This document shows positions 22,277 through 51,659 of a DNA stretch of 64,000 bases, piece by piece (positions within the stretch are counted from its first letter, which is position 1; each line of letters starts with the position of its first letter). Source of the DNA: Nemertoderma westbladi (lineage: Eukaryota > Animalia > Xenacoelomorpha). The stretch spans positions 1-64,000 of the forward strand of contig JAUCBJ010009143.1 in the NCBI GenBank assembly GCA_032718475.1. Reading direction: 5' to 3'. A model generated the notes under the pieces. That model was not told the origin of the DNA. It searched no databases and saw nothing but the letters and a program-made list of their open reading frames with translations. The position numbers were made by a program, and so were the translations under genes.

Positions 22277-24052
22277 TTAGTCTTTCTTGCGCGGACGGCG
22301 TTTACGCAGTTTCTTAAGGCTAGCAAGAGTCCTTTTCTCTTTGGGGCGAGCCACTTTACGAGGAGGGCTGTAGCTCCTAGGCGAAGGGTGCAATATAATT
22401 GCATCAGAAGGTGCAGGGTTACGATCGGTATACCCGCCGGTCGAAGTACCTGGTTGATTAATATCAACCTCAGTGGAGTGAGATCTAACGGCCTTTAGAG
22501 CGCGTCTCAGGACAGCAGCTCCAACGGGTCCTTGACGGGTCGTCTGGACACTAGCGGTGGGTGGACCGTGAGTAGTGAGGAACTTTCTCGGTTTAATGGT
22601 TCTCTCCAGCTCGCGTTCTCGGGTTCGATATTCATATGGTCGCCGAGATATTTCCTGTAGTTCAGGATGCGAGTTCACAAAGATGTCGCCATACTCCGGG
22701 TCCTGACGGATAAAATTGATCAGGTGATATGTGGTTATATCATTAGGGTTAACGTTTCTAAGGTATTTCCTGACAAACTTGGTGGAAATACACTCACCAA
22801 CACGCTTTATTAACTCGTAACTTGGTACGCGTGTTTTCTGTTCAATCGACGCGAATAGGTAAGGATGGAACGCGTAAACTCCCTCGTAAGCTCGTCCAGG
22901 GTAATAGCGATGTCGGGATTCGCAATGTAAATCGGCGTTCGCTTCCCAAGCTCGGATGTATCGCAGGGTGATCATCTCGTCTACGCTCTCTAAATCGCGA
23001 TTAAAGGGACAATTGTAACTTTCGTGTCCTTTAAGCTGGCAGTAGTGACATTGAGTCATAAATTGTGGGCAGACGGCAAATATATGAGAGTTATTAAGCC
23101 GGCAATAAGCACAATATATTTCCATCATCGGTTGTTCGAGGAAATAGGAACAAGGTACGCTCGAGTCTAGAGGAGTGAAGTGGTCTCTCGATGCGCATAA
23201 TCGACAACGTTTTCGGGAAACGTAGTTGGCGTGTCGATAATCGTACGCTGTGAGACGCTGTGGACCTTGATACCACTCTATGACATAATCATTGTCACTG
23301 TTCCGAGAAGTTGTAGGCTGAATCGCTTCTGATTCCAAGCACACTGGTTCATCCTCCAGTTGTATAGACGAAGTGGGTGCGTCTGTCTCAGTAAGTGGAT
23401 CCACTGTCTGTATTTCCACGACAGAATAACCTGTAGGTATTAGGGGTCTTTGTATAACAGATGAATGTGAGTTCTGTATACAAACGTCTTGAAACACGGC
23501 AAATCCAGCGCTACTCAGTTTCTCCGCAGCTGAGTCTCTAAGACTGAGCTTGGTCAGCGCGCGGTCCTTGAACTGACTATCGACGTTGCGGAACGGAGTC
23601 AGAAAGCGCCGGAAACATTCGAAACGTATGAACTTATTGTGTTCGTCTAACTTGGCGAGTTTAGTTCCAAGTATTAACGGATGAGCGCGTATGGTACGAC
23701 TGCACACATCGGCTAGCCAACCGGCAAGTGCTGCGTTTTCAAAGATCGTGTATATAGCTAAGGAAGGGCGAAGGGGAACACTCATAAAGCTATATACGGC
23801 ACCAGGCGCAGTTAATGGTCCATCAAAATATAAACGAGAGTAATGATCTCCATATACTTGCTGGTAATTTATAGGATTTCCAACTTTGAAATTCCAACCA
23901 TATTCTTGAAAGGCAAGATGTCCGATGGATGTCCGTTGTACTTTAGTAATGCCGCTGGGTGTATTGGCATACATAGTGCGAAAGAAACCTCGGCCTTCGG
24001 CCCAAGGAGCAATCAGCTGAGTATCAACGAAAGGGTATGGAATGTTCTCCAT
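22277..24052 (-). CDS. Accessory ORF2 of C, C-terminal part: end of exonuclease-like domain plus 3 zinc knuckles and a basic tail
   Basis: PFVDTQ..WA and GHLAFQEYGWNFK...YQQVYG align with B ORF2; CRLC..H, CAYC..H..C and CHYCQLKGHESYNC knuckles; WEANADLH motif. Confidence 0.8.
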   Translation of the reverse strand: MENIPYPFVDTQLIAPWAEGRGFFRTMYANTPSGITKVQRTSIGHLAFQEYGWNFKVGNPINYQQVYGDHYSRLYFDGPLTAPGAVYSFMSVPLRPSLAIYTIFENAALAGWLADVCSRTIRAHPLILGTKLAKLDEHNKFIRFECFRRFLTPFRNVDSQFKDRALTKLSLRDSAAEKLSSAGFAVFQDVCIQNSHSSVIQRPLIPTGYSVVEIQTVDPLTETDAPTSSIQLEDEPVCLESEAIQPTTSRNSDNDYVIEWYQGPQRLTAYDYRHANYVSRKRCRLCASRDHFTPLDSSVPCSYFLEQPMMEIYCAYCRLNNSHIFAVCPQFMTQCHYCQLKGHESYNCPFNRDLESVDEMITLRYIRAWEANADLHCESRHRYYPGRAYEGVYAFHPYLFASIEQKTRVPSYELIKRVGECISTKFVRKYLRNVNPNDITTYHLINFIRQDPEYGDIFVNSHPELQEISRRPYEYRTRERELERTIKPRKFLTTHGPPTASVQTTRQGPVGAAVLRRALKAVRSHSTEVDINQPGTSTGGYTDRNPAPSDAIILHPSPRSYSPPRKVARPKEKRTLASLKKLRKRRPRKKD

Positions 24053-25284
24053 GTTCCCATTGTATGCCTAATATGTTCTCCGACAGCGATGGTAGAGCAG
24101 AGGAAAAACTATTTCGCATTCTGAAATATTCAGAAATAAGATCTCAGTAGGAGGATTGTAACATTCGAGTACTATCCCCAACCGAATTTATCCCCAGTGT
24201 GATGAGGTAAACATCAGCTCAAAGATATGTTTGCCTCAGTTGTTCTACATAAGATTTATATCCCCAATCATTAAGGGAGGTGAACAACCAGATTTATGAC
24301 ACATAATGGTACCAGTTATTCACAAACTATCCGCTTGTCCTTTCAGTCCTTGTTTCACGGTTGTGGACTTGAGGAAATTAGGAAGTGGTTGATTATCTAA
24401 TCAAGAACGAGAGGGTGGAAGTTGATATCATAAATATCAACAGAATATGACATGGACAAGAGGTGCGGACACCAATATTAGCATCCAGATGAACAGTAAG
24501 GGCTGGGAGGTTTAGTATTCGTTTCCCGAAGCTCCGAGCGCGTTGGGAAGAGAAGGTGAGGAGATTTATTAGGATGAGGTATGATCCATACCACGATACC
24601 ACTATGATTGGTCGATCGATGAAGGGAGTAAAGAGGAGGAAGGATATAGGGTAGTATCCATAAGACACCACAATGGACAAGTTTTCCATCACGTCATCAT
24701 TCATTCTTGTCTTTTAATTGTGACACTGATCACAATAATTACAGGAAAACGATGAAGGAAGAGAAAGTTACAGCCTCCCGAAGGAGACCGCCCGCGAGCA
24801 CCCGTGCCCCGGGGAAAACTATTCACATTATGGACCCTGGACATTAACCCATGTCTCTTCTCCAGTGGTTCTCCTTTATTTGTCCGCATCAACCTTCTTC
24901 CACGTTCTATCCTTCGAGTTAATTTCGAATAGGGTTCTCGTGTTCTATTCTCGATTTATCGTTTCGACTCCGCTGGGCATGATATTTAAATAAAACCATT
25001 TCCCTTTCGGTGTCTACATCGTCCGTATCGTGTAAATCAATAGGATGACCAGTGGTCAAGAAGTCCATATACGTACCATTACGATGAGTGTAGCGAGCAG
25101 TGAACTTTCTATAATCCAATTCACGCGTAAGTTGCTCCTGGGACATTGGCGGTTCGATATAACGACCATCGTCCTCCGTAGTAGTTGGATCAGCGTCGCC
25201 GCGTATCAAGCTATCGACAAACGCTTGTAAAGGTAGAGTATATCTCTCCCTGATACCAAGATCATCTTCTATTAATTCAGTCAT
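24053..25284 (-). pseudogene. Probable disrupted N-terminal part of C ORF2
   Basis: ATG-initiated ORF 24919-25284 followed by broken frames; position matches the B ORF2 N-terminus and there is weak similarity (VRTSCPCH vs ILTRCPAH). Confidence 0.45.
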
Positions 25285-26932: not shown

Positions 26933-28946
26933 TTAAGTTGGGGAGTCCCTAGATGTCGGTTGGATTAGGGAAGTGGTCGTGGGAAGAGTTTCTTGCCTTC
27001 CATAGTTTCCGGAGAGCTCTCTGTCTCTTTCCAGTAAACATAAACGTCCCACTGGGCGATTGAGCTGTTGAGTCTCAAAGACTATCCCTGGTTTCTTAAA
27101 GTTCCGCCGCATGACGACGAGCTCTACTGATCGCACCAAACCATCGCTCGAGATATAAGTCTCGATGATACGTCCTGTTTGCCATCGCTTACGTGGGAGA
27201 TCGGGGTCCACAATAAGCACCATGTCTCCAGCGCTGACGTTTTCTTGCTGCGCAAACCACTTAGTTCGAAGTTGTAGAGTGGGCAGGTAATGTTTCTCGA
27301 AATGGTCAGCGAAACGACGGGATAGCAACTGCATAAGTTGCCAGGTTCGACGGCAGTACTCGTCTCCGTCTGTGATCTCCGATCGCGGGAGCATGGCTAC
27401 GGGTTTCTTCAGTAGAAAGTGCGCGGGTGTTAGCGCTTCCAGGGAATCAGGATTTGAAGAGACTGGCATAAGCGGTCTTTCGTTGAGATAGGCGGCGATT
27501 TCCTCCATTAACGTCCGCAATAGTTCGTCGGTGAGATAAGCGCGACAAGGCACAATAAAGTGGAACGCAGTCTTCACGCTCCTAATCAATCTCTCCCAAC
27601 TTCCTCCCCACCAAGGGGCGTCGGCGGCGTTGAAGGTCCAGCTAGACGCTGTTATCCTTAGCTGATCGTCCACCTGTCTTTTGTTCCAGTCCTTTACGTA
27701 AGCTTGAATTTCGTTGTTGGCGCCAATGAAGTTCGTTCCCTTATCCGATCTCATCGTGTTACTGGTTCCGAAGCGAGCGATCTGTCGTCGTAAACTCAAC
27801 ACGAAGCTGTTGGTGGAGAGATCGTTTACCATATCGAGGTGGATAGCTCTACAAGTCATACAAACGAAGATGACACACCATCTCTTGACTATAGTCCGGG
27901 CACGATATACTTCAATAGGGCCAAATAAATCCACACCGGTATTAGTAAAGGGTGGTTCATAGAAGCTTACTCTTTCCCTAGGTAATTCTGCCTCTCGCTG
28001 TGTTAAAGGCCTACTGAATGCTTTCCTACAGGGTATGCAGTTCCTAAGAACTTGGTTCAGAGCCCTACGGGGTTTATAAAAATAGTAGCGAGTTCGAATT
28101 TCGCTCAGAACTCGTTCTCTACCAGCATGGTACAGTTTGCTATGAACATCTACAATTATCTTGATTTGTATGTCAAGATTTCTAATGAGGATGGGAAACT
28201 TAGTGTCAAAGGATAATGGAGCGTTGGTCAATCTACCTCCAACACGTATTAACCCATCTATCATGGTACTAGAGAAGCGATCCCTTAAGCGCATCTGCGG
28301 ATTTCTTAACAACAGGAAATACTTATCGGAATCCTCATAGCATTGTAGGAGTCTCAGCATCTGTTTGTTGGTTTCATCATGCTCCTGGTAGCTGATCTTC
28401 TCCTTTAGAAACCTGTCGGATACCTTGTATTGTGGAAGATCTTTAACAACATGGACTCGTGCAGATGTTGATGGAGCCTCATCACTATGAGTCTTTGTCC
28501 CGGAGTAACGATGATGAAAACATCGTTTTAAATAGGTGACAGCTTTACAGAGCCGATTCCAGGAACTGTAGTGACGTATCGCTCTCTGCAAGAGAGGTGA
28601 GAGTCCTTGCGCGATATCTGGTATTCCAGATTTCCAATCCTTGTCACGGATTTCCAAGACTTCTTTAGTCGTGGCGGTGGGTTTCTGATCCAAAGCATCA
28701 TCTCCGGAAGTAAATAATACAGATAGATCAACTGCAGGTTTAAACAACTTCGATTTACTCGCTCGAGTTTTGAGTTTAACTTTCTCCGCTCCCTTGGCCT
28801 GTCTGATCTCTGCTGTTGTGAGATGGGGAGGCCATTCTTCTTCTTCTCTGTAGAGAAAGTCAGGTCCTCCTAACCATTCGGGAGTATTTACCAATTCCTT
28901 TGGAGTCGCTCCTCGGGACGCGATGTCTGCTGGGTTAATCGTTCCG
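26933..28946 (-). pseudogene. C pol, 3' segment (end of RNase H, integrase), separated from the rest by insertion D
   Basis: NPADIASRG, GVDLFGP, SDKGTNF, GGSWERL and GDMVLI motifs. Confidence 0.93.
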
Positions 28947-29487
28947 TGTTAGCTTATTCAATCCCGCCAACACCCCATAAAGTTGTAAGCCGATAAGCAA
29001 TATTGGGAGCCGCGAGATTGGGCAATTAACCAACTCGCGCCATCCCAATAAGAGTGGGAAGGAAGCACACAATAGAGGGTCAGGGGCCAAACCCCTAACC
29101 CAGAGAGAACACAGTGGAGTGAACGGGAATACTCCACGGGGCGCCAACAAGGGTATTAACCAATCAGAGGGGGGAATGGTATCGATTGAGTAGCAATTAG
29201 GCCAACCGTGCAGTATAGCCACTTGGCAGTAATATTACCTATTCAGTTATCACAGTGCAGCAGTGCTAGCGTAGGGTACAGCCAATTAGTTTAGTTAGGG
29301 GATCACGGGACTTTAGTTACCGTATCCCGCCTTGTACACATTCACTATATATCTATATCTTATAACCTCCTATTATACACCGAACTTCAGAACTCAGTCA
29401 CTTTATTTCATCCTTATACACGGCGGGGACGCGTGGACTAAATTACCACAACCGGATAAATCGGGATCCCTCTTGGATCCCGTCACA
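28947..29487 (+). repeat. 5' LTR of D
   Basis: TGTTAG...GTCACA, direct repeat of 42694-43234. Confidence 0.98.
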
Positions 29488-29496
29488 GTAACTAAA
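29488..29496 (+). other. Non-tRNA primer-binding position of D (GTAACTAAA), complementary to own LTR 29312-29320 / 43059-43067
   Basis: tttagttac inside the LTR; gtaactaaa immediately follows the LTR end; no TGG. Confidence 0.72.
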
Positions 29497-29592
29497 TCGG
29501 TGCTGCTTCCCCAGCTAAACTCAGTAACTAAAGCCAGCTGCCGCCCTAGACAAACTCTATAAACACTAGCCACCGAAATCTGCAGAAGAGAG

Positions 29593-32500
29593 ATGAGCGA
29601 TTCGGGCGAGACACCACCGCGGACCCCGGACGAAGACCTAACGATCCGCGAGGCCGCGACCAAACGATACAGGCCCACGACGCCGGAGCCATCGATAGTG
29701 GGCGGACCGGAAGTCGAGGATGAGGGGGGCCTGGAGCTCGAAGCCGAGCCAAGAGAAAGGGAGAGCGAGAAGGAGGGAGAAAGGGCGGAGTCGACACGGG
29801 ACGGAGAAAGGCGCGCCGATGTCGCCGGCCAGCTACCGGCCGAGGGCGACGAGCGGCCCACCGAAACGGTGACGGTGGGGCCGACGGTGCGACGCCGGAC
29901 GCGAAGAGACGGAACAAAGATCGGTACCGATGTCGCCGGCCAGCTACAGGCCAAGGGCGACGGACGGCCCACCGGAACGGCGACGGTGGAGCCGCCGGTA
30001 CGACGTCGAACCCGGAGGGAGAGGGGAGAAGTCGGCGACGAGGACGTCGGGGTTTCTGAGCGACTCCGACGCGCTTACATCGCAACCCGGAGGATACTAA
30101 ACGATGCCAAGAAGAAAGGGGCGAAGGTAGACGAGGTGAGACTGAGGAAGCGACTAGGTGAGTCGGATAAACACTTTAGTTATCTAATACACTTTGAGCA
30201 GAGAGAGCTAGCCGAAACGAGGGCACATGAGATTGCCGTGGAACTATTGGAACTATGGGAGTGTGGGGGTATGGAACCTAGTGTAGGACCAGTGTACATA
30301 GGGCCATACTCGGTCGATGCCCGGGGAATAAAACCGGTGGGTTGGAGGGGACTCGAAGGGGGCGAATCCGAGGTTAACTCCGAGGATTCGGCCTCGTCGG
30401 TCGGAGAAAGTTCCGGGAAGCGGGGGAGAGCCAGTGGGTCGGGAAGGCGGAGGGAATCCGTTACAACCGATAAGTCTGCTACATCCTCCGTAAAAGAAAG
30501 ACGGGTGAGAGAGATAGAGGCCAGACACCGTCTCAATCTAGCGGTGGAAGCTAATAGAGAAGTAGGTAGACGGCTAGAGGAGGGGAGAGTGATGCTAGAG
30601 AGGGAAGCGGTGTCGATTAAAGAGTTAAGGGAAAGGGGCGAAAGGGCCGCGAGGAACCTTAGGGAGTATGACGAGATGGAGTTGAGGGAAGAGAGGGAAC
30701 GCGAGGCGGAACGCGAGAAACGCGAAAGTGAACGCAGGGAGCGTGAGGCGAGAGAGGAAAGTGAACGCAGGGAGCGTGAGGCGAGAGAGGAAAGTGAACG
30801 CAAAGAGCGTAAGGCGAGAAGAAGAGAGGGGATTGTGAGAGAGATGGAATTGGTCGAGCAGAGAGAACGGGAGTCTAGCGAGAAAGTAACAAGAGAGGAG
30901 AGTGGCCGAATAGAGTTAGAGAAACGGCGAGAGAAACTCCTAGAGTATACAGCTGTACACGCGCGCGATTTGGAACGGGCGCGGGCAGGAGTGTCGGAAA
31001 GCGGGGCCGGCTCGAGTATTTTTGAGGAGCCGAGGGCCGTAGATACATTTATTAATGCCCCACTGACAGGGACCGCACGACAGACCCAAAACTGGTGTGA
31101 CCGTACGGGCGGGGGGGGTAATAATAATGATGGTACAGTAGGCGTTGTTAATATTGATAATACCGTATGGGACAACACTAATCAAACCTTTATTGCAGGA
31201 AATACTTTACCTAGTGGTAGTAATTTAAATTTAAATCAGAACAATCCTAGTGTTAATGTAGGAGATAATTCTAATATTGATGTAGTTACGCAAAATAATT
31301 CAAATAATCAAAATAATAATCCAAATTCGAGCCTACAAAATAATTTAAATAGCGCGATCACGCAAAATAATTCGAATAATTTAAATAATGACCTAAATCC
31401 GAATTTACAAAATAATTCGGATAACGTGGCCGCCCAGAGTAATACAAACGATTTTGTTTTGGGCGAGCAAATTAATTCCGTTTCCAATATGGGTGTTATT
31501 AGTGTAGACACGTCGGGCCTACGTAACCAGGGAGCAGAGGGCCTGGTAGGCCACGTAGTTAGTAGACAGGGAGCAGAGGGCCTGGTAGGCCACGTAGTTA
31601 GTAGACAGGGAGCAGAGGGCCTGGTAGGCCACGTAGTTAGTAGACAGGGAGCAGAGGGCCTGGTAGGCCACGTAGTTAGTAGACAGGGGGCAGAGGGCCT
31701 GGTAGGCCGCGTAGTTGGTAGGCAGGGAGTAGAGGGCCTGGAAGGCCACGCAATAGCAGAGGGAGAGGCGGGGGTGAATAGACCCGACTGCGGTAGGGTT
31801 GATGTGTCGACTAGAGAGACATATAGTAGCGGGGCGAGAGGTAGCGAAGTTAGATGTAGCGAGTGGGGGGGGGCTACGAGCACCCCACAACAGAAAGTTA
31901 GCGGCGAGAGGGGGGGGGGGCAGAGAGTGTCCCACAGCCGTCAGCGGACAATGCGAGGGCCGAACAAGGTAAACCGCAACAACCGGCGACGGAAAGTAAT
32001 AGGGGGATTGCGAGTATCCCCAGCGACGTGCGATCGAGCAGAGAAAGACAGGTTGACGTCGCGAGAGGGCAGACGGAGCGTCGAGCCCGATCAGAGGAGG
32101 AAAGAAGAACAGTGGGGTTTAACCGGGAGGTCGACGAGAGATCTCGTGAGCGGGAATATTCCACTGATAGGAGAGGAGAGGAAGAGAGTAGTAGAAATAT
32201 CGCCGCAAACGATAGAAGAGCGAGGACGGACAGCGAGCCGTCGGTAGTCGAGATGAGAACGGAGAGTCAATGGGGTCGGACTCCGGGAGATTGCCGTCAC
32301 CCCGGAGGGATGCGATCCGGTGAGGCGCATTACACGCCGAGAGAGGGGTACGCGATGTACCGGTACGAAGAAGAGAACAGTAGAGAGGGGGGTCGAAGAG
32401 AAACTTTCCGACGGAATATACCTACCGATCGAGAATACGGTAGCCGCGGGGAGGATTATTCGAGAAGAATAAACTTCGATCCCGAGCAACACATGCAGAC

Positions 32501-35500
32501 TGTAGGGCATACTGTAGGTCTTACTGCACATACCGTAGGCCATACTGAGAGAGGCAATGTAGGCGATAGGATAGCGCGGACAACGGGATTAAACCCGGAA
32601 GTCGCGGAATACATACCGGCGAGTAGGCCAGAAGCTGATAGGCCTATACCGGTACCAGTACAGCAGTATGACTACAGCATGCAGGGACATAACATATACC
32701 CAGGGGAGGGGGGAATTATTGCGGATAGGTGTATGGGCCCCAACATATTAACATCAACCCCAGTACCAGACATACCGGTGGGGGGGGGGGACAGGGTGAC
32801 ATTCCCCCATCACAATATCAACAATATACCCCGATGGTAGCAAGAACAATGAAACCCTTGGACGAAAACAGGTCGTGTGATACAGACATATGGAGGGGGC
32901 CGCTACCCCCGATGACATATCCGAGTCAGAGGAGATCAAGAAATAGGACGGACGAACCGCACCAGACAGGGGAAACTATACAGCATCCGTCGAATCCATT
33001 AGAAGCGCAGGCAATGGGGATGGCCACGTTGATCGATGCGTTGAAAACGAGGATCGAATTACCACCCGTGGAACCGTTCAAATTCGATGGGAGCAGGCCG
33101 GAAGAATACTTACAGTTTCGGCGAATGTATAGTAACGAAATACTAACAAAAAACTTGACGCAGGCGGAGTGCCTAAAGTATCTACAAGTGTACACGGGAG
33201 GCCCAGCATACGATATCGTGAGGCAGTACCAGGGAATAGAGGGCGGCTTCACGACAGCATGGCGGGCACTGGATAGGGAATACGGGCACCCGGCCAAGAT
33301 CATCAGGCAGACGCTGAGAGGCATAACATCGGGTGGCCTACAGGATAATCCCGTTAGCATTAAGACGTTTGCTAACAAAGTCGAGAAGGCGCTGATCGTG
33401 CTGAAGACGCTAGACGCGCCATACGAACTCAACGCGTCCAATAACATCACCACGATAGCGCAGGCACTACCGAGCTGGCTGCGCAACAAATGGAGGAAGG
33501 TCGCTTTCTCCACCCGAGACAAGAAGGGTGCGGAACCAGGTTTAGAAGAAATGTCAAACTTCTTAAATTACGAGGCTGAACTAATAACGGACCCAGTCTA
33601 TAGCGAAGATAGCCTGGGAAAAGGACCAAAGGCAGATCACTACAGGCCCAAACCAGAGCACAGTACATCGAACGCGTTACCAAGACTCAGGCAATCATTG
33701 CCATACGCAGCGACGCAGGGGACTACAAGTCCACAGACAAACGAAGATAAGACAACATCAAGGGACGGACAGGGGAACAATAACAACATAAATAAACATA
33801 ACCCCAGTACGTCCAGTAGGCCAAATCCAGTCAATAAGAACAGTAGGGACTTTGGTACAAATATAACTGCGATACGCAACGCATTGTATAAAGAGGGCTA
33901 CGACCCAAAGAGCAAATGCCAGTTACACGCAAATGCGCTTCATAAAACCATGAACTGCAGGTACTGGCAGGCGCTACCGAGGCAAGATCAGATAGATTAC
34001 GCGTCGAGCAATAAAATCTGCTCGCGATGTGTAAAGAGTGGACACAAGGCCAGGGAATGCCAAGAGAAGCCGGTCAAGTTTGGCCAAAGGAGAGGCCAGA
34101 CGATGGCAACGAGCACAGTAGGGGCGAAGAAGAGAGGAACAGTGCTACTTGGAGTAGTACCAGTACGAGTGATCGGAGAAGGCAATCGATCAGTAACAAC
34201 ACTAATGCTGGTTGATAGTGGAGCTGCCTTCACACTAGTTGAGGAATGGATAGCCGAAGAAATTGGGTTGAGAACGAGGCCAAGCAGGATGGCGGTGACA
34301 ACCATCTCTAGCAAAGACGAGGTCCTAGAGATGAGGACAGGACGGTGCGCAATTGCAGCAGTGGCACCAGGATGCGATTATGGGGCAACCATCGACCCCA
34401 TCCAAGTAATAGAGTCAATTAACATCAATGCCAGGCGGCCAACCAACATCGAGGTCGAGCAATACAAATTCCTGGACAACATTGACTTCTCAATCCCAGA
34501 CGTGGACGTTAGGAAGGTATCCATCATAGTAGGCATGGACTGCCCAACAGCCCACGAGAGAATGCAAACGGTCTTCGGAGAAGACAAGCAGAGCGACCCG
34601 GTGGCCATATTAACGCCTTTCGGGTGGACGCTGAGTGGTCCAATTAAGAGCAAGATACCATTCAGGATGTCGGAGACATCAGGATGCATGTTCGCGGGAA
34701 CAATGCAGGAAATGGGTGATGAGGGAGCAGAGGAGCAGCTTAAAAGACTGCTCAGGCAAGACTTCGAGGGACTGAAAGAGACCGGGGTCGGGACCTCGGT
34801 AGAAGACAAACAGGCTTTACAGAGCGTGGAGGAATCGATGACGTGTGATGAGGGGCGGTATACAATAGGAATGGTATGGAAACTACCGAAGATACCGCTA
34901 CCCGATAACAGAGGGATGGTACTCACGAGACTCCGAAAGCTGAAACAAACACTACAACGGAGCCCCGAGAAGAACGAGTACATTCACAAAACCATTAAGA
35001 AGTACGTCGAGAAAGGATGGGCCGTGGAGTTACCGGTGGACGAACCGAACACTGACAGGACATACTACCTGCCACTCCACGTAGCATTAGACCCAAAGAA
35101 AGGTAAACTGAGGATGGTAGTCGATGCATCGGCAAAGACCGACGGAAGATGCTTAAACGATTACCTGTTGGAAGGCCCAAATATATACAATTCGGGCATA
35201 GAAGTGTTACTTAGGTTTCGGAATGGGAAACACGCCTTCACCTGTGATATAGAAGGCATGTTCAACCAAGTCCGAGTAACAGAGGAAGATAGCGATAGTC
35301 AACGCTTCTTATGGTATAACGGCGAGGAAGAACCGCCTATAATACCGGCATATAAGATGGTAGTACAAAACATGGGGGCCAAGTCGTCCTCATTTACGAC
35401 GACTATGGCAGTAAGAGACACGGTAAAAGGGAAGGAGGATAGATATAGCAGTAGGGCCGTCGATATGATCAGACGCGGCTTCTACGTAGACGACGGTATG

Positions 35501-38119
35501 GAGTCTGGAAATACGGTTGAGGAGATACTGGAAACAGGGCGCGAGGTTCGCGACATCCTGAAAGGATCCGGCTTCAACCTGACCAAATTCCAATCCAGTT
35601 CAGAAGAATTCATCAAGGAAATAGAAGACAAGAAACCAGAATCGACCATGGACAACCCTACAACAGCCAAAGGACAGGACATGGCGATTAAGAGAACGGA
35701 ATCCCAGCAGAAGGCGCTGGGAATCGTGTGGGATAGAAAAACAGACGAACTGAAGTATCAGCTGAGCCAGGAGGGCGCAGACACCCATACGAAGAGGGGT
35801 TACGTATCATATATAGCAAGAATATACGATCCCTTAGGCCTAGCATCCCCATTACTAGTCACGGGGAAACAGATACTCAAGAGAGTATATAAGTTGAAGG
35901 ATGAGTGGGACGTAGAGGTACCAGAAGACATCAGGAAACAGTGGAGCAAATGGACAGGAGACTTGGAGAGGATGGGAATATACAACATGCCGCGAGTGTA
36001 TTTCCCGGACGGGAACATGACGAATCTGGACCTACATATGTTCTCCGACGCGTCGTTAGAGGCATACGGAGCGGCACTCTATTTAGTACAACGAGAGGGG
36101 CCTCACAAGCCCAGACTAGCCTTCAGCAAAGCTAAGTCAACGCCGCCAGATTCAGCATCTGTTCCCAAGTTAGAATTGACAGCTGCGAGACTAGGAGTTA
36201 GAGCCACAGCCTACCTAGTGGATACAATTCCCAACATAGTGGAGACACACTACTGGACGGACTCCATGGTAGTGCTTGGTTGGCTACACAACGAAAAGAC
36301 GAGATACCCGATATTCGTCGCGAATAGAGTGGACGAAATAAGGGCGGGCACAGAACTGGAAAGGTGGCACTACTGCCCAACAGATCAGAACCCAGCGGAC
36401 TTACTGTCGAGGGGCGTGGAACGCCACACTTTCCTGAAGAAGGAAGTATTGTGGCAACATGGGCCACAATTCCTGAGCGATAGGGAGGCCTGGCCGCCGA
36501 TGAGGAAGGTGGAACCGGGCTCGGAAGTAATATCAGAAGGAGAGGGAGATTCAGAGGGAGAAGAGATATACTCCCAGATGGTGAGGGAGATCAGGGACGT
36601 GCAACCAGGAAGGGAACTATGCGACAACCCGACGGATAAACTCCTCAGCTACAGTTCCAGTTGGTATAAGACCAAGAAACTAGTGGCGTACTGGAGAGCC
36701 TTTGGGAATTTCCTTGCGGGAGTCGGCAAGGACAAGAAGACCAGGATAACCATAGATCTGGAAGGAGCGGCCAAGGCAGTGATCCGCTATGAACAACGCA
36801 AGAACTACGGCGACGAGGTGGAACGTGTCGGTAACCAACAACATCTCCGACGTGATAGCGAGTTGATCACGCTGTCGCCACAACTCAACGAGGATGGGAT
36901 CCTAGTAATGAATTCTAGGGTAGGATATAACAATAGTATAGTCGTGCTGCTGAAACCCATCATCATTCCCACAGGATCGCCTATAGTCCACCAGATCATA
37001 TGGGACTCCCACAAATCGATACTGCATGGGGGCACCAACCGAACCCTCACAGAGATAAGGAGGACCTATTGGGTCAAACAATTAAGAAAGAAGGTGAAAG
37101 CGGTAGTGGGACAGTGCCAGACCTGCCGACGAGCAAAGAAGGAGCGAGCCGTACAGGAGATGGCGCCACTACCGGCGAGTAGGGTAAGACAGCACGACCC
37201 GCCATTTACGCATTGCGGTGTGGACATGTTCGGGCCGATAAAGATCAAGGTGATGCGACACACGGAGAAACGCTACGGTATTATCTTCGTATGCAACAAT
37301 ACGCGGGCGGTAGGAATAGAACTCGCCCAAGATGCAACCGCATCAGCCTTCATTAACGCCTTAGAAAGGTTTAGGGACCGCAAAGGTGGGACGATCGCAG
37401 TGATATACAGCGACAACGGCACCAACTTTGTGGGCGCAGAGAGCGAGATGGCAGAGGCCTTAGACATCTTGGAGGGAGAAGAAGTCAGGGCGGCCATGAG
37501 AAGACGACAAGTGAAGTGGGAGAGACGGACGCCGTATGCACCACATACACTAGGATGCGTCGAAAGACTAGTGGGCAGTTCAAAACGTCTAATGACGAAG
37601 CTGATGAACACCCACATGGTCACTGAAGACGTCTTACGGACAGTACTTGCGAAGTGCGAGGGGATCATTAATAGCAGACCGCTATACCCGGAGAATGATG
37701 ACCCTGAGTCATTAGACGTGTTGACGCCTAGCCATTTCCTGATGGAAAGGCCAGCGACCATAGATATGCGGGGTGTAGACCCAGATGATATACACTCCCG
37801 CCAAAGTTGGAAAGTAGCTAAAGCAATTAGCGCAGAGTATTGGAGGAGGTGGGTAGAAGAATACCTACCCACGCTCCATAAGCGAAGCAAGTGGAGGAAG
37901 CCAAACAGGGAGTTGAGAGAGGGAGATCTCGTAATCGTCACGGATGATACTATCATCAACAACCAATGGCGGTTGGCGAGAGTTGTAGGCACCTACTCCG
38001 ACGAGGACGGAAGAGTCCGATCGGTAGAAGTGCGGATAGGTGGAAAGATAGGTGCGAAGGACAGAAAAACCTACAGGAGAGCGGTAGGTAAATGCTGTCT
38101 TCTAGAAGGGGCACCTTAA
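29593..38119 (+). CDS. Bel/Pao Gag-Pol of D, broken into three frames, probably at poly-G runs (~31910-31920, ~32780-32790)
   Basis: Glu/Arg coiled coil, PFKFDG Gag core, CSRCVKSGHKAREC knuckle, LVDSGA, YVDD, FSDAS, GVDMFGP and SDNGTNF. Confidence 0.9.
31528..31745 (+). repeat. 39-bp coding tandem repeat (QGAEGLVGHVVSR, about 5.5 copies) in D gag
   Basis: Directly visible in DNA and protein. Confidence 0.9.
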
Positions 38120-38256
38120 AGCGGAGTTAGAGTGAAGTTTAGTCGTCCAAATTTTGGACTGAGGGGGGTGGGATTGAGGGCGAGACGCCCTTCCCACACA
38201 AATAAAAATAAAATAAAATAAAAATAATAGTACATAGTAGGCAGAAATTAGCTAAG

Positions 38257-38945
38257 AGGTACGTAGTACCTAGTTAGTTAGTTAATAGGTACGTAGTACC
38301 TAGTTAGAGCTTGTTAGTTAATAGGTACGTAGTACCTAGTTAGAGTTAGAGAGTTAGTAGGTACGTAGTACCTAGTTAGAGTTAGAGAGTTAGTAGGTAC
38401 GTAGTACCTAGAGTTAGGGAGTTAGTAGGTACGTAGTACCTAGAGTTAGAGAGTTAGTAGGTACGTAGTACCTAGAGTTAGGGAGTTAGTAGGTACGTAG
38501 TACCTAGAGTTAGGGAGTTAGTAGGTACGTAGTACCTAGAGTTAGTTAGAGTTAGAGTTAGTAGGTACGTAGTACCGATAGAGTTAGAGTTAGTAGGTAC
38601 GTAGTACCGATAGAGTTAGAGTTAGTAGGTACGTAGTGCCAATAGTTAGAGTTAGAGTTAGAGGGTACGTAATGCCTAGTTAGAGTTAGAGCTAGAGGGT
38701 AGGTAGTACCGATAGAGTTAGAGTTAGTAGGTACGTAGTACCAATAGTTAGTTAGAGTTGGAGGGTACGTAGTACCGATAGTTAGAGAGTTAGTAGGTAC
38801 GTAGTACCTAGTTAGAGTTAGAGTTAGAGGGTACGTAATGCCTAGTTAGAGTTAGAGTTAAAGGGTAGGTAGTACCGATAGAGTTAGAGTTAGTAGGTAC
38901 GTGGTACCTAGTCAGAGTTAGAGTTAGTAGGTACGTAGTACCATT
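38257..38945 (+). repeat. Array of about 21 AGGTAC-GTA-GTACCT hairpin units with (GAGTTA)n spacers
   Basis: Non-coding interval between D pol and ORF2; each unit is self-complementary. Confidence 0.92.
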
Positions 38946-39448
38946 AGTTAGAGAGAGAGAGTAAGAGGTAAAAGGGGTAAAAATAGGATATAGATATTAG
39001 ATAGCAGTAAGTAGAGTTAGTAGCGAGAGGGGGGCATATGAGTGCAGCTGGATAAATCGTGTGGCCACACGACGCATACTGCTGTACTGCATAGGCCCAC
39101 TGAGTAGGCCAGAATATGGATCAGAGAGAGAATAGAATAAACCCATAGGCAGCAGTAAGTACTAGGACAGTAGAATCAAAGCAAAATAGATAAATAAATA
39201 GAATAGGGCTAAAAAATCGAAAATAGTGGTAACACAAAGAAAGTCGTTCTAGAACATAATAAAAGTAACGGACGGAAATTGTAAATTAGGCTGATTTACT
39301 AGCTCCGAAATTAATTAGGTTAAATTAAGCTTGAAAGGCGCAGTTAAGTAGAAAAGTAGGCCATTATCGAACTGTAGGAAACATCTCAATACATCACTCA
39401 TCTGTATTGCGCCTTGGTAAGGCACCACCCTACAGGTGAGCGAGTGTA

Positions 39449-41992
39449 GTGTTCGGAATGGCGAGTAAGCTGATCAGGAAGAGAAAGGCGGAGTCGGGAG
39501 GAAAAGAAATATTGGTGGATTTCACCGAAAGACACCCGGAGGAGAAGACGAGAGGATACTACGAGAGGTTGGAAAGGGGTCACGCGGCACGAGCGCTGCA
39601 GGATCACTTCCGGGAGGCGCACGAACAGCGGTTGGTCGGGACCTACGGGACGCCGTCGCTGGACAACGCGATCTTCCAACACTTCCACTACGTGGTGAAA
39701 GGAGACGAGGCGAAGTTCGGGATTCCGAAGTATCCGAGGGAATCGCCGAGGAAGGACTGGAAAAGATTCATAGAGTCCGTCAACAGAGGAGGATATATGA
39801 TCCTAGATGACGAGGGAACCGTGGAAGACGAAGCGGGTTCGAGACGAGGAACGGCAGGGTCGGCCAGGACCATACTCTTGCATTTGGCAGCACCAAATGG
39901 GGACATCTTCTTATTCGACCTAGGGACGTATGGGAAGAAGGACGGGCCGAAATTAGACCGACTGCCGAAAGCGGTACAGGTTTTAGTAAGAGAGAAGTCG
40001 ACGACGAAAGTGGGATCGGCGATTCGCGAGGACGCGGAGAGGATCATCGGTCCGGACGCCACCAACCTCCTGGATATGCAGAAAGTCTTTACGGCTATGA
40101 CGGCACCGGATGGATTGGGGGTGGTCGAGAACTCAGGCCAATGCGGGGCGGTGGCGATGGGCCAATTATTGGGGCTCGTATGCCACAAACCAATGGATTG
40201 GGGGAAGTTTAGGGAGGAATACGGAGCAGAACTAGCGAACTCGCTGAAGTGGGGAGCGAGACCGGGAAAGCAGGAGGTATATCAGTTTCGCAGAGGAGCG
40301 ATAAAGGTATATCAGAAGCGATATATCCTGCAGGAGGACTGGATGATGATAAGTTTACTTAACTTATTCATGACCGTAGTTATTGAAAGAGAACCAGGGG
40401 CATTTCTGTTATCGGGATCACCCCTAAGCTACAGGAGAGCCTTTAAAGTGGCCTTTGACGGTCTGGTAGACCACCCGGGGCTGAAGGGCGAGTCGGTGTA
40501 CTACAATAGCCGACATCTGGTAGATGGGGAGACAGACACACCGTATCAGAGATGGGAGCAGCTAGAGATGGATAGACGGGAAGCAAAGCGACTGGAAGAA
40601 GTCGCTAGACGGGAGAGGATAGAAGCAGAGGAGAGGGAGGAGGAGGCCAGGACACAGAGTTATGGCTTCGAGGAACAGGCGGGCCTAGACGAACTTCATT
40701 GAACTTCGTCGGGGAGTTCGGGGGAGTCTCTAGGGCGAGAATTGGGATGGACGGTGGGATCGCCGAAACAGTCGACGTCGGGGTTGCACGCGATGCCCAT
40801 ACCAGCGGGCGCCGAGGGCGACCAACCGCCGAGGAAGTTAAGGGAGCTAGAGGGATGGAGAGCTACGGGCGAGAGCCAAGGCGGGAAGGGACATAGTGGA
40901 TCCACCGAGATACCGGGATTGGAGACACTACCGGAAGAGGAGGACGACGACGACGAGTTCGGAGAGATACCGCCCATCGAGAGGATAGGCCACTCGGACA
41001 CGGACTGGGTTGGCGGGAGGGTGGTGACGGCCAGTGGGGCGAGGGCCTTCTGGAACAGATCCGGCAAGCGGACCTGGGTGCACGAGGGGCCGGCGATGGA
41101 TTTCGCGGGGAGCACTATCAGGTTGGGCGAGCAACCGGGGACGGCACCACGGATAGTATTCAGGGAGACAATGCCCGAGAGGGGCGGAGAGATCGACGTA
41201 AACAGGGAGAGCAACGTGGAGAAGTTTGCCTACCAGCGACTCCATAGACCGCGGAGATCGCTTGGGACAAAGGACGAGGTGGGACGCGAGACATTGGTAC
41301 TCGGCTGCGACTACTGTGGGAGACAGACCCATCGGGAAAGCAGCTGCCTATACCGGTTCCAACGGGGAACCTTTTGTCTCTATTGTGGAGAACCAAGTCA
41401 CAGGATGGGGGCGTGTCCACGGTTGCATAACCGATGTCCAAAGTGCCACTTTCGGGGACACTACGGGCGGGAGTGCGACTGGATGAGCGACGAGGAGAAG
41501 TTCACGAGGTTCGAGGAGTGGGCCGACGTCGGGGCCATGACGCGCCAGCGCATGAAGGCCCAAGAGTTCAAGTGGGGTTTCTTCCTCATAAACCAGGAGA
41601 CCCACATGGAAATCATAAAGCGAAGGTTACCGTTTACCTATCAAGAGGTAGCTACGGCGGCATCGTTCGCCGGAGTTATGAACACGCAACGGTACCTGGA
41701 CAGGTGGACACCAGAGAACCGGAGGGAGTTTAGGGATTTCTTGGCGGAACACGTGCCAAAGGCAATGAAGATGATTCTATGGGACGCCACACGAGGGAAA
41801 CAACCAGGCCATTCTGAGGGGCCACCGGCGAAGCGGTATCGGGCTTTAATAACACCAGCGCCCAAAGAGCCGACGACCGGGATCAGCAAGGAAGTGGCAG
41901 CGAAGGTCCGGAAGCAGAAAGCGGATGATGCCAGAGGAGCAGTGATAACCAAGAAACGGGCCAGGGAAGAGGACGTGAGGAGGAACAGATAA
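39449..41992 (+). CDS. Accessory ORF2 of D: DEDD-like 3'-5' exonuclease plus 3 CCHC knuckles; single in-frame TGA at 40700-40702
   Basis: ILDDEG (ExoI), LPKAVQVLVREKSTTKVGSAIREDA (ExoII), LLDMQ, YILQED (ExoIII-like); CDYC/CLYC/CPKC knuckles; both ORF halves share one frame. Confidence 0.82.
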
Positions 41993-42693
41993 GTTCCCGG
42001 AGACGAGGGAATGAGACTGAGACTGGGAAGTGGTGCGCCTGGAAGGCGCCGCATGTAACGTACGAACTATTAAGTATAAATTTAATTAATGCAAATAACC
42101 ATATAAGTGCAATTTGTATGTACGTACGTAGTGATTAGCAGTAAATACATACGTTTGGAGTAAGTACTATAGTCATACAACCTTTCTCAATTAGCTACTG
42201 GGACTGGGGGACAATTGACTATGGCACTATGGACGAGACAACTGACAACTTCACGCTTCTTGAGTGCGACGGCACGAAAGGGGGGGAGGTTCGTCAAGAG
42301 AGATAAAACAGTCAAAGTGGGGTTGAGAATCGGAATAAGAGTGCGAAGTGAGGAGAGAGTGCGAACGCAATTCTAGTGTGGGGGGGGGAGAATAAGAGGC
42401 TGAGTAAGGGACGGGGAGGTCCGAATGTGAGAGAGTTAGAGTGAGAGTGAAGGTGGAGTAGGGCGAAAGTGTTGGGGAAACAAAAGTCGTGTGAAGAGGT
42501 GAGCGCGATCGGCCCGACATGAGACGCCAGGCACAGGGTAGCGTTATCATACCCATAGGGGGCGGCCTGGAAAGCCGGCTCCAAGAGAAAAGAATTCCAC
42601 CCCACACCCGATACTAGATCGGGATCCAGCGGGATTGTAGCGCACTTTTAGGTTGATGCTATCTTCTTACCGGGAAGATAGCATGGGGGGGAG

Positions 42694-43234
42694 TGTTAGC
42701 TTATTCAATCCCGCCAACACCCCATAAAGTTGTAAGCCGATAAGCAATATTGGGAGCCGCGAGATTGGGCAATTAACCAACTCGCGCCATCCCAATAAGA
42801 GTGGGAAGGAAGCACACAATAGAGGGTCAGGGGCCAAACCCCTAACCCAGAGAGAACACAGTGGAGTGAACGGGAATACTCCACGGGGCGCCAACAAGGG
42901 TATTAACCAATCAGAGGGGGGAATGGTATCGATTGAGTAGCAATTAGGCCAACCGTGCAGTATAGCCACTTGGCAGTAATATTACCTATTCAGTTATCAC
43001 AGTGCAGCAGTGCTAGCGTAGGGTACAGCCAATTAGTTTAGTTAGGGGATCACGGGACTTTAGTTACCGTATCCCGCCTTGTACACATTCACTATATATC
43101 TATATCTTATAACCTCCTATTATACACCGAACTTCAGAACTCAGTCACTTTATTTCATCCTTATACACGGCGGGGACGCGTGGACTAAATTACCACAACC
43201 GGATAAATCGGGATCCCTCTTGGATCCCGTCACA
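42694..43234 (+). repeat. 3' LTR of D
   Basis: Preceded by the PPT and followed by the TSD. Confidence 0.98.
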
Positions 43235-46200
43235 TTCCGGGGCAATGTCTCCATTGGTCCATCGTCGTGCGACTAAGTATGATGGCTACCCTGTTGGTAA
43301 CGAAGACGCTGAACTGACAGACTTCATTGGTTATATACTCTAACACGAGTAAAGCGTCGGTCCAATAGACAGTTTTCTCTAATGTATAGTCAATCTGTTC
43401 GGTTACATTCCGGCCGATGGCTGTAGCGTATAGAGCCGCCTTTAACTCCGCTCGAGGAACTTTCAACTTGTTGTTGATTAATGCCTTAGAAGTAACCAAG
43501 GCGACTTTGATTCCATCCGGAGTTTCCACTCTTAGGTAGGCTACTATACCGATTCCCATATCGCTGGCGTCTCCAAACACATGGAGTTGATAGGAATACG
43601 TAGGGAGAACATGACCAAAATATGAACGGGAAATTATAAAATCCTCGATGGCTGGCAGAGAATCTTCCCATTTCATCCACTGCTTCAGTAATTCCCCCTT
43701 AAGTGGATCGTCCCATGAGTGGTTTTCAAGCCACATTTGTTGTACCAAACTACGAGCAATCAATATAACTGGGCTAATAAATCCCAATGGATCGAAATAA
43801 GTGCTCAGTATACTTAAGCAAATCCGTTTGGTTCGAACTGGATTATCTCGCTGTTTTAGCTGGAAAAACAGGATATCTCGCTCTGTGTCCCATTTCAAGC
43901 CGAGTGTCTTGGTTTCTGGCAGATCATCTTTGATCAAATCGAGATCTTTCGCCCCTCGATCTTCCGCAGGGATCGACTCCAGAAACTCACGGGAGTTGCT
44001 GGTGAATTTGGTTAATCGAAATCCACCTCTTTTTAAGCACTCTACCGTTCCCTTAGCGACCTCAATGGCTTCCTCAACTGATGGGAGGGACTTCAGATTG
44101 TCGTCCATGTATATGTCTCTCTTGATGTTGTCGATCACTTCCTTAGAGAATGCCTCTCGGTTGTCCTCTGCAGTAGTACGCACTACCGAACAGGCGTTGG
44201 AAGGGCTTGAGATTATCCCAAAGGCCTGGATGGTCATCCAGTACTCCACCGGTTTCTGGTTGAGGTCTCCTTCGGGCCACCATAGAAATCGTAAGCTATC
44301 TCGATCCCTATCTAACACCTTGACTTGTAAGAACATGCCTTCTATATCGGAGGCGAAAGCAATCGAATATTGTCTCAATCTTAAAAGAATTCCCAACAAA
44401 GATTGAAGCAAGTTGGGTCCGGGTAACAATTCAGAGTTAAGGGATTGACCCATGTAAAGAGCGGAGCCATCAAACACTACTCTCACTTCATTTGGTTTAC
44501 CGGGTTTAGGAACGTAATGGTGAGTTAAATAATACGTTCTTTCAGTCACAGGTGTTTCTTCCGGTACCCTCTCCGCGTATCCCTTACTAATAAATTTTTC
44601 CAGCTGTGTTTGATACATTGCTTTAGCTGAAGAATTAGCTGTAAGGCGTCGATGGAGTTGCGCGATTCTTTTTTCCGCCAGGGGTCTGTTATTTATGAAC
44701 TTCGGTTCTCTCTTGCGAAAAGGTAAACCGACTTCATACCTACCTTGATCTTTGATGAAACGTGTAGTCGTCTCTTGGATCTGCTTGGCCCTTTCCTCTT
44801 CCACCGACAAGGCTTTATCGTAGGAATTGGGCTCTACCGCCTCTTGCGTAAAGAATCGTACAGCATGTTCATCTCGAGTCTTGGCATTGCAACGTTCAAT
44901 GACGTCATTTAATTCGTCGTTATAAGCTTCTCATTCAGAGGGATAGAGAAGTTGACATAAGTTAACTTGGTTTTGCCAAGCCTCGTTTTCCTTAAGGAGA
45001 TCGATGGTATTCTCCTCATCAAAAAGCTGGTGAACGTCGTCGTTATCTGAGGAGTATGGAATTCCCTCAGTTGAATCGTCTCCTTCACTAGTATCATCTT
45101 CCCATTCACTCACCTGGCAGACTCTCTCTTGCGGTAGTCTTTCTCTGAGTGTTCTACGGGAAGGGCCAGTAAAGTACCAACCTACTCTAGTTCTTACCGC
45201 ATAGGTCTGTAGGGGCTGCGGTTGAGCAGGCCGTTTCTCTAATGTCTCCAGCGCCTCATGCGCGTTTTGGCCAATGAGTATTTGCACTCCAGGATAATCA
45301 GTCTGGAATCGAGGTATGTAAAGATGTTGGATGCTCTTATCCTCGTCCCAATTATAAAGGTCTGCTTGAGTAGTAGCGAAGTTCTTTATAGCCACCATTT
45401 TCACTGACCTTATGCTGTTTTCTCCTAGTTCGTCCTGGGGGGTGGACAACGCTCCTACATAATAATCAGCTGTTATTGTAGATTTCCAAACTTGCATAAT
45501 GCCTGACATGTTGAGCTTAGTTTGGAACTTGGGTTGTCCAGCAAATATATCTTCGGCTAACTCTTTATCGATGAATGTTCCTGTGCTGCCGGAGTCCAGG
45601 AGGGCGTTCACTACATAACTCCTCTTAGGTCCGTGAACCCTTACTTGCACCACAGGAAACTCTCGGATCCCTACATTGGAAGATGGTTCTTTCCAAGATG
45701 GTTGTCGTTCAGAAGTAGTTAGAGTAAAGTCGTTATCTGGATCCTTTTCATATGTGAGTGCTCGATACACTGCGGTATTTATCATGTAACAGGATTCGTT
45801 TTCGTCGGAGAACTCGTCTGTATAGAATCCTTCCATCTCAGATTGATCAGTGTCGTTCACATCACTGAATTGGACATGTAGCTCGGAATCACTTACCTGA
45901 TTCGGACTATTTCGATCGAATTCAGCGTGCAACAAGATATGATGTTTCGCACCACACTTTGCACACCTTATGTCAGAGAAACAGGTTCGCCGTTGGTGTC
46001 CTTGTCTGAGGCAATTATAACATAACCGCTTATCCCACATGACTTCGCGTCTCTCTGTTAATGATTTCTTTAGAAATTCATCACACCTATTCAAATGGTG
46101 GGTCCCGTCGCACAGTGCACATTTCGGTTTGATGTTACTTACCTTATTTTGAGTCACATTGTGTACACTTGCCTTTTCTTCGGGCTTTCTCACCTGAATT

Positions 46201-51647: not shown

Positions 51648-51659
51648 TATATCCTTTAA
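51648..51659 (-). other. Non-tRNA primer-binding position of C (sense TTAAAGGATATA), complementary to own LTR 52410-52421 / 21746-21757
   Basis: The + strand tatatcctttaa abuts the LTR and ttaaaggatata lies inside both LTRs; no TGG. Confidence 0.78.

Follow-up and report, generated by a model that had tools for sequence, protein, structure and literature searches.

The cluster of retroelements in this 64,000-nucleotide stretch of Nemertoderma westbladi DNA (hereafter, the window) raises the question of how a BEL/Pao element with no tRNA-type primer-binding site (PBS) could begin reverse transcription, and whether the exonuclease-like protein encoded downstream of its pol gene makes the primer. 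The first-pass annotation had proposed the latter, with the exonuclease trimming the 3' end of the element's own RNA back to a duplex at the PBS. We consider this specific link between exonuclease and primer unlikely, and argue instead, with a probability of roughly 0.6, that the element (called D here) primes itself in a Tf1-like manner, its primer being freed by an internal cut, probably made by the element RNase H and not by ORF2.

Element D, which lies on the forward strand, is a young BEL/Pao element inserted inside another element, C. Its two 541-bp LTRs (TGT...ACA, at 28947-29487 and 42694-43234) are identical, a polypurine tract (42685-42693) adjoins the 3' LTR, and a 5-bp target-site duplication, TTCCG, flanks the insertion (28942-28946 and 43235-43239). 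The gag-pol region (29563-38119) is distributed over three overlapping frames in this copy, with domain matches within 32729-38119 to DUF1759, protease, reverse transcriptase (RT), Peptidase_A17 (RNase H region), integrase and DUF5641, and tandem 32-36-bp repeats (38260-38960) stand between pol and ORF2. The gag-PR-RT-RH-IN order with the Pao-specific DUF1759, Peptidase_A17 and DUF5641 identifies D as BEL/Pao, as do the TG...CA LTRs, the 5-bp duplication and the polypurine tract; the Pao-type domains speak against membership in Tf1/sushi, and the domain search returned no chromodomain match.

The PBS of D, GTAACTAAA (29488-29496), begins at the first base past the 5' LTR and has no TGG, in agreement with the earlier view that the tRNA-type site has been lost. 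Its exact 9-nt reverse complement, TTTAGTTAC, occurs in both LTRs (29312-29320 and 43059-43067), also as previously described. D thus shares with the Tf1 type a PBS that, lacking TGG, is not of the tRNA 3'-end kind and is complementary to the element's own LTR at the boundary. When the LTR was shuffled with its dinucleotides preserved, 13 of 3000 shuffles gave a match of 9 nt or more, as did 23 of 13175 internal positions, and pairing PBSs with the LTRs of other families gave 4-6 nt only. Among copies of the D family, sampled as short contigs of one RNA run in which no splice joint and no ends were seen, the PBS variants at 29492 and 29494 preserve G-U pairs. The family is very abundant in these contigs and its LTR ends even more so. 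The leader holds a second copy of the PBS motif (29524-29533), and some family contigs omit the 37 nt between the two copies. A tRNA gene search of the window found none.

Examination of the remaining elements of the window gave a second case. Element C, on the reverse strand, has a 1203-bp 5' LTR (51660-52862) with 3 differences from its 3' LTR (22198-20996), and its PBS, TTAAAGGATATA (51648-51659), again without TGG, has a 12-nt complement within the LTR (52410-52421) that was equalled in 0 of 3000 shuffles and at 0 of 8389 internal positions; the letters involved are unrelated to those of D. In elements A and B the perfect matches are just 6-7 nt long, at chance level (781/3000 and 374/3000 shuffles). 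In A and B, an imperfect site immediately before the TATA box seemed to covary with the PBS, but we set it aside because its pairing depends on a wobble and a bulge and it shares sequence with a repeated motif which we take to be a C/EBP-ATF site; an intron-made primer, sought in D, C, A and B, was likewise rejected, the best being 5-7 nt. Most of the PBSs examined begin with GT, and none of the 4 readable ORF2-clade elements in the window has one beginning with TGG, so that an exonuclease-bearing relative with a normal tRNA PBS, a case that would speak against the trimming proposal, was not found here.

BEL/Pao loci fetched from metagenome and genome collections provided a comparison without ORF2, for which 0 of 26 and 0 of 4 loci gave a match; in the 9 of 9 measured, pol stops 173-290 nt short of the 3' LTR. 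These relatives are distant (35-41% RT identity; the tree is unrooted, built with no outgroup and with 6 of 29 rows left out for short coverage, and a later tree comprised 13 chosen rows), and TGG starts 0 of their 12 readable PBSs. Five families carry self-complements of 10-11 bases. In L002, L003, L016/L018 and L030 the 10-11-nt match spans the junction of a predicted GT-AG intron in the LTR, while that of L029 is contiguous over 11 nt and starts 4 nt past the LTR, 7 offsets having been tried; the null counts for the five, in this order, were 0/1981, 3/2146, 5/2032, 7/2031 and 0/6320. L003 and L018 differ by a compensatory change in the self-match, and 3 of the 5 L018-family copies having all three parts show one mismatch or wobble; in L014 no self-complementary match was found. 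Because the same signature of self-priming is present in families without ORF2, the exonuclease is probably not the primer maker, and the suggested coupling between loss of the tRNA PBS and gain of the exonuclease does not hold in these five families.

Which copy of the complement is available to the PBS depends on where transcription starts. A motif scan of the D LTR yielded five candidate starts, three of them downstream of the primer site and none at the site itself. The preferred candidate is the Inr-like TCAGTT at 29243-29248 (A+1 = 29245), whose position we confirmed, as well as that of the primer site beginning 64 nt after it; it is suggested by its motif and by the ORF2-less relatives, in which exon 1 begins at a similar Inr, 94-115 nt ahead of the primer end (L003, L010 and L025 have a strict Inr plus a DPE at +28, upstream of the intron). 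With this candidate start, the earlier statement that the site is probably not made up of the first transcript bases gains support. A rival start region (29394-29431) contains TCAGTC (A+1 29396) and a loose Inr (A+1 29400) with GGACG at +28, such a pair being found in 353 of 2000 shuffles. With a start downstream of the site the RNA would carry the 3' copy alone, the case in which the exonuclease model, improbable as we hold it, would apply.

For the first ~280 nt of the D RNA, folding predicts a local junction of the Tf1 kind, comprising the primer:PBS duplex (pairing 0.94), a stacked 3' stem that starts at the first base past the primer (29321-29336 with 29417-29431), a 5' arm (29288-29312 with the leader at 29499-29521) and two hairpins near the LTR end (29433-29482, namely 29433-29449 and 29462-29482). 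The predicted primer:PBS pairing recurs when the whole LTR plus leader is folded; the fold z is -3.6. Variant sites fall at 6 of 108 paired versus 23 of 133 unpaired positions (Fisher p = 0.005), and 29284-29332 has no variant of at least 3% among those listed for the family contigs; this distribution backs the predicted duplexes, which flank the primer:PBS helix as in Tf1. The primer is predicted to lie on the PBS at equilibrium in only 2 of the 8 elements folded, D and the spliced L002, and forcing the pairing costs 15 kcal/mol in C, whose best fold is in another register that covers the LTR end too, and 4-9 in L003 and L018. With the upstream start the PBS of D is occupied by the 5' copy with probability 0.935 and by the 3' copy with 0.0, contrary to the annealing of the 3' copy postulated by the first-pass annotation, and the 5' copy keeps the PBS in 7 of 7 modelled 3' ends; with a start at 29396-29400, the 3' copy would take it with probability 0.83-0.93. 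The 16 nt past the primer end are mostly paired in all scenarios folded, with both start sites, and hence no unpaired tail would reach the duplex for an exonuclease to remove.

ORF2 itself looks like a DEDDy-type 3'-5' exonuclease with three zinc knuckles, its activity being predicted. In agreement with the earlier reading of ORF2 as an exonuclease, Exo I, II and III-like motifs (D117, E119, D192, Y289, E293) are found in the 414-aa part at 39458-40702, and three CCHC motifs follow in the same frame behind a TGA in the D copy (40703-41992). This layout forms one uninterrupted ORF in an A-family element (1260 codons, reverse strand, 61471-57692) and in the protein P0001. The Exo I DxE and the Exo II Asp are invariant in 5 of 5 rows of alignment A5, and in place of the YxxxD of Exo III we found YxxxE in D, the A-family ORF, C and P0001, the acidic residue being kept; the ORF2 remnant of C (22280-24067, reverse strand) has an Exo III-like motif and zinc knuckles, and no Exo I or Exo II motif was detected in it. 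Among the coding variants listed, 27 of 33 are synonymous, indicating purifying selection. For the homologous domain at 59180-60031 the model suggests a DnaQ-like fold of the DEDD nuclease type: EXD2 and RNase D take Foldseek ranks 1-11 and nearly all top rows of the VIA comparison belong to the DEDD family (Z up to 7.2, rmsd 4.1, 156 aligned), but the model is of low confidence (pLDDT 47.5), with no E-value below 0.001 and identities of 10-16%; a first fold model (pLDDT 36.2) was discarded. The Atlas PF01612 clusters gave 0.91 for the ORF2 domain, and Pfam gave a sub-threshold match in P0001 and P0003 and none in D. Homolog searches recovered 2 proteins, P0001, with the layout mentioned, and P0002; viral contigs yielded no relatives and a sequence search of the PDB nothing relevant. 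Most likely, the element acquired ORF2 separately, as an RNA-binding 3'-5' exonuclease with a task outside primer formation, interference with host small-RNA silencing being a tentative suggestion for its role.

In the self-priming that we favour, transcription would begin near 29245, and an endonucleolytic cut of this internal 5' LTR segment after 29320, probably by the element RNase H, would release a 5' fragment of ~76 nt with its 3'-OH at the LTR boundary. Strong-stop DNA would then copy 29487 back to 29321 and transfer to the identical stretch of the 3' LTR. A precedent is Tf1, whose primer is cut by RNase H between bases 11 and 12 (excerpts of PMC7175516) and whose three-duplex structure, with duplexes flanking the primer:PBS helix, has been called a 'pretzel' (excerpts of PMC10085805).

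The trimming model would gain if D started at 29396-29400, which puts the site in U3 and leaves the copy at 43059-43067 as the only one, so that the exonuclease-zinc-knuckle protein could shorten the 3' end up to the junction, or do so with a short LTR RNA. The missing TGG in all 4 readable ORF2-clade elements and the purifying selection on ORF2 agree with it as well. We nonetheless find it improbable, with this start or in general, in view of the signature in the five ORF2-less families and of the paired bases past the primer end; moreover, if transcription began downstream, trimming would cost the RNA the 3' R on which strand transfer depends, so that a second RNA would have to take part, and element C, with the best match and LTRs at 3/1203 differences, has no detectable Exo I or II, unless the enzyme is supplied in trans. 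If true, this route would be the first case of a retroelement building its primer with a dedicated exonuclease, one that the ORF2-bearing clade would have adopted on descending from ancestors that primed themselves.

Alternatively, the primer could come in trans from a second genomic RNA, by way of its 3' LTR, or from a short transcript of a 5' or solo LTR alone, with any intron spliced out; RNase H, a host enzyme or ORF2 would then cut or trim it. Such a source would let the template keep its LTR intron, as both LTRs of L028 do, and suits the abundance of the family and of its LTR ends, but the structure of D is predicted to form in cis within 250 nt without being displaced, and we give priming in trans a low probability. 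It is also unlikely that the LTR-leader pairing is regulatory (packaging, translation or a switch hiding the PBS) and that priming is done by a host RNA, for example a piece of a tRNA: half-tRNA primers are known for copia elements (excerpts of PMC6317226), C folds best in its other register and GT is the common PBS start, yet in seven families with different letters the matches stop right at the LTR boundary or 4 nt away from it, and four of these are completed only by splicing, for which a host primer has no need. That the 9-nt match of D is a coincidence, as the chance-level matches of A and B might suggest, is very improbable given a p of about 0.004, the independent match of C and the conservation of the paired block among copies, and C and the outside families largely refute it already. 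A tRNA-Val half, considered from the TAC ends, was judged unlikely by the anticodon-loop rules.

Self-priming as such is already known, from descriptions of Tf1/sushi and from predictions for certain copia lineages of plants; our literature search, in which subscription papers and Repbase entries were poorly covered, found neither self-priming nor an exonuclease ORF described for BEL/Pao. If confirmed, our reading would mean that a large BEL/Pao lineage does without host tRNAs and evades silencing by tRNA fragments, using an internal primer that is sometimes made by splicing; elements of this kind would be misjudged by annotation software that relies on a tRNA PBS. ORF2, with its exonuclease and knuckles, is maintained by purifying selection in an abundant family and merits testing in its own right.

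Among cellular proteins, the top fold matches of the ORF2-type domain are the DEDDy nucleases EXD2, RNase D, Rrp6, Nibbler/Mut-7, Egalitarian and Exd1, the inactive Egalitarian and Exd1 matching the model of pLDDT 47.5 equally well. Among retroelements, PMC5408684 describes a DEDDy ORF3 downstream of pol in the rotifer LTR elements Juno and Vesta and in Athena/Terminon, for which its authors suggest a role in 3'-end processing of element RNA or in silencing; that text has 0 occurrences of PBS, priming or CCHC. These elements resemble D in the extra DEDDy-like exonuclease ORF past pol, but they are not BEL/Pao, and D differs in the three CCHC after the domain and in its Exo III YxxxE. For the plant elements Tcn1 and TAR/Houba/Osr-1, which belong to other superfamilies than D, self-priming was predicted where 10 bp or more, beginning 0-5 bp past the LTR, are complementary to the LTR itself (excerpts of PMC6317226), a length and position reached by C, L029 and the spliced families, the 9 nt of D being one short. 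A close parallel is with Tf1, Tf2 and Tj1 of the Tf1/sushi group (Ty3/gypsy chromoviruses), whose PBS is, like that of D, complementary to their own LTR RNA, and in Tf1 duplexes flank the primer:PBS helix (PMC10085805) as in the predicted fold of D. In contrast to Tf1, D is a BEL/Pao element whose 9-nt primer probably lies ~76 nt inside the transcript, with an extra 5' arm and a cut that is predicted, and in relatives the primer would be completed by splicing.

Element D (28947-43234, plus strand; identical 541-bp LTRs, target duplication TTCCG), whose pol has the BEL/Pao domain set and whose gag-pol region is broken into three overlapping frames in this copy, carries a primer-binding site (PBS) whose bases are complementary to its own LTRs. 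The first nine bases past the 5' LTR boundary recur in reverse complement at 29312-29320 and 43059-43067, which confirms the sites reported in both LTRs by the first-pass annotation. When the LTR was dinucleotide-shuffled, 13 of 3000 sequences reached this match, and so did 23 of 13175 internal positions. Element C, the host of D (minus strand; LTRs 52862-51660 and 22198-20996 with 3 differences in 1203, TSD TAAAC), presents a 12-nt PBS self-match with letters differing from those of D (0/3000 shuffles; 0/8389 internal positions) and is a case independent of D; the PBS of one family matches the LTR of another over 4-6 nt. The self-matches of A (5' LTR, 14798-13740) and B (56089-55108), from a third family, are 6 and 7 nt long and stand at the chance level (781/3000 and 374/3000 shuffles), and between the PBS of A and the LTR of B the match is 8 nt long. 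None of the four window PBSs (A, B, C and D) starts with TGG, in agreement with the loss of a tRNA-type site claimed previously.

The window content is nested animal transposons, with three levels at 19408-53957: D is inserted within the pol of C, which in turn interrupts a LINE (endonuclease 53957-52770, reverse transcriptase 21006-19408). The third family also includes the 3' half of a further copy (64000-56431); a near-perfect 259-bp palindrome (14798-15056) abuts A's 5' LTR, and a 63-bp tandem repeat occupies 15440-17550 in about 30 copies. Long charged low-complexity extensions precede the gag domain in all three families (29563-32247, 11241-10600 and 49448-48000), and the leaders of A and C are about 2.1-2.2 kb long.

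It had been proposed that ORF2, an extra exonuclease-like and zinc-knuckle ORF downstream of pol, trims the RNA 3' end into the primer, explaining its co-occurrence with the self-complementary PBS. Self-matching PBSs are found, however, in families without ORF2. Among the BEL/Pao loci fetched with a reverse transcriptase alignment, ORF2 matches numbered 0/26 in metagenome contigs and 0/4 in the genome collection, pol ending 173-290 nt from the 3' LTR in the nine loci measured; in L028 and L029, both complete elements, the two LTRs and the TSDs are present. A TGG start was found in 0 of the 12 fetched loci with a readable LTR end and PBS. In several of them the PBS matches a predicted splice junction within the LTR, made up of the 5-6 bases just ahead of a GT donor and the 5-6 that directly follow a TTTCAG acceptor (regions L002 220-326, L003 3667-3851, L018 556-717, L030 13847-14234 and in both L028 LTRs). 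These matches measure 11 nt in L002, 10 nt in L003, 11 nt in the L016/L018 family and 11 nt in L030, and were equalled, allowing any GT-AG junction, at 0/1981, 3/2146, 5/2032 and 7/2031 internal positions, respectively. A compensatory pair distinguishes L003 from L018. L029 has an 11-nt contiguous match beginning 4 nt past the LTR (0/6320, seven offsets tried). Two observations count against the pattern: one mismatch or wobble occurs in three of the five L018-family copies having all parts (L020, L022 and L028), and L014 has no PBS self-match. The self-complement thus recurs, spelled in other letters, both in elements that carry ORF2 and in elements that lack it, the ORF2-bearing elements of the window forming a separate clade (support 0.978 in an unrooted tree of 13 rows). 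An element can have a self-complementary PBS independently of ORF2, and because of these ORF2-less families the co-occurrence in the window needs no causal link. Donors and acceptors of the LTR introns are kept while the intron sequence diverges (in L007 and L010 as well). Most PBSs in both clades start with GT (29488, 13739, 55107; L002, L003, L018, L029, L030), which gives the predicted primers an AC end; C is the exception. The BEL/Pao elements of L027-L030, two of them complete with TSDs, lie within records titled bacterial MAGs and are probably DNA of an animal host that entered these bins.

Folding predictions bear on which copy would act as primer. In the 5' RNA of D, 29313-29320 is predicted to pair in cis with 29488-29495 (probability 0.94). 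The predicted fold also has a stem that starts at the first base past the primer (29321-29336 paired to 29417-29431), an arm (29288-29312 paired to 29499-29521) and two hairpins, and it scores z = -3.6 relative to 200 shuffles. The paired block is conserved: in contigs of four public runs, unphased and with uneven cover, no variant of at least 3% falls in 29284-29332, and 6/108 paired against 23/133 unpaired positions vary (p = 0.005). Both PBS variants retain G-U pairs, and three other variants disrupt arm or stem pairs. When modelled as a second strand, the 3' copy, which had been supposed to anneal to the PBS, does not gain it (0.0 against 0.935 for the 5' copy) with any of seven 3' ends, among them an end cut back exactly to 43067. 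Stems that begin no more than two bases from the primer end are likewise predicted in C, L003, L018 and L029; in L002 the predicted stem begins six bases on. At equilibrium, D and spliced L002 (0.99 against 0.31 unspliced) are the only elements predicted to favour the primer:PBS helix; C, A, B, L003, L018 and L029 do not favour it. In C's LTR (52482-52463, minus strand) a second, energetically preferred pairing takes in the end of the LTR together with the PBS's first five bases, possibly an alternative conformation.

The outcome for the 3' copy varies with the transcription start. Inr-like motifs occur at D LTR positions 299, 342, 429, 450 and 454, the last with GGACG at +28, a combination of loose Inr and such motif seen in 353/2000 shuffles; the scans relied on consensus motifs for promoters and splice sites. 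Were transcription to start at 29400, U3 would contain the site, and pairing of the 3' copy with the PBS is predicted at 0.83-0.93, yet trimming would then destroy the molecule's own 3' R, and the bases beyond the primer site are predicted to be paired whether this or the upstream start is used, contrary to the proposed unpaired tail. In L003, L010 and L025 the intron has, upstream of it, a strict Inr accompanied by a DPE at +28. The Inr and the end of the spliced primer are 94-115 nt apart in L002, L003 and L018, near the 76 nt of D. This placement favours the upstream Inr suggested earlier, and hence a 5' copy within the D transcript, although the competing motifs, including those at 429, 450 and 454, weaken that assignment.

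ORF2 itself is maintained by selection: it holds 33 of the 40 best-supported variants (526 more exist), and 27 of the 33 are synonymous, falling on both sides of an in-frame TGA (40700-40702). This TGA, which may be a mutation or be read through and is absent among those same 40 best-supported variants of the larger set, separates the exonuclease part of D's ORF2 (DxE at 117 and 119, Exo II Asp at 192, YxxxE at 289 and 293) from three CCHC knuckles that continue in frame; both parts form a single ORF in the relative at 61471-57692 and in the related database protein P0001. There is modest consistency with a DEDDy fold: Atlas clusters for PF01612 come out at 0.91, Pfam matches are sub-threshold in P0001 and P0003 with none in D, and a low-confidence model (pLDDT 47.5) has EXD2, RNase D, Egalitarian, Rrp6, Nibbler as well as further DEDD nucleases as top matches (best Z 7.2, rmsd 4.1, 156 aligned). 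A's ORF2 copy is without the exonuclease part, and Exo I and II were not detected in C's. Acceptor-like sequences just ahead of ORF2 start codons (39425-39440; 61469-61455 and 2995-2985, minus strand) suggest a possible spliced subgenomic RNA; that of D can also be read as a donor. Primer production by the ORF2 exonuclease is quite unlikely, and ORF2 most likely has another role; for rotifer DEDDy ORFs, PMC5408684 offers 3'-end processing and silencing as options and describes their activity as unproven.

We consider self-priming of D likely. The term PBS does not appear in PMC554778 or PMC3118150. Transcription would start near 29245, and strong-stop transfer would proceed via the LTR segment downstream of the primer cut. 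The same transfer would permit intron-bearing relatives to copy the intron from the unspliced 3' LTR, and the intron is kept in both LTRs of L028; the reverse arrangement is formally possible for these relatives. RNase H may cut after 29320, by analogy with Tf1 as described in PMC7175516, and the predicted local fold of D's 5' RNA resembles the three-duplex structure that Tf1 requires, according to PMC10085805.
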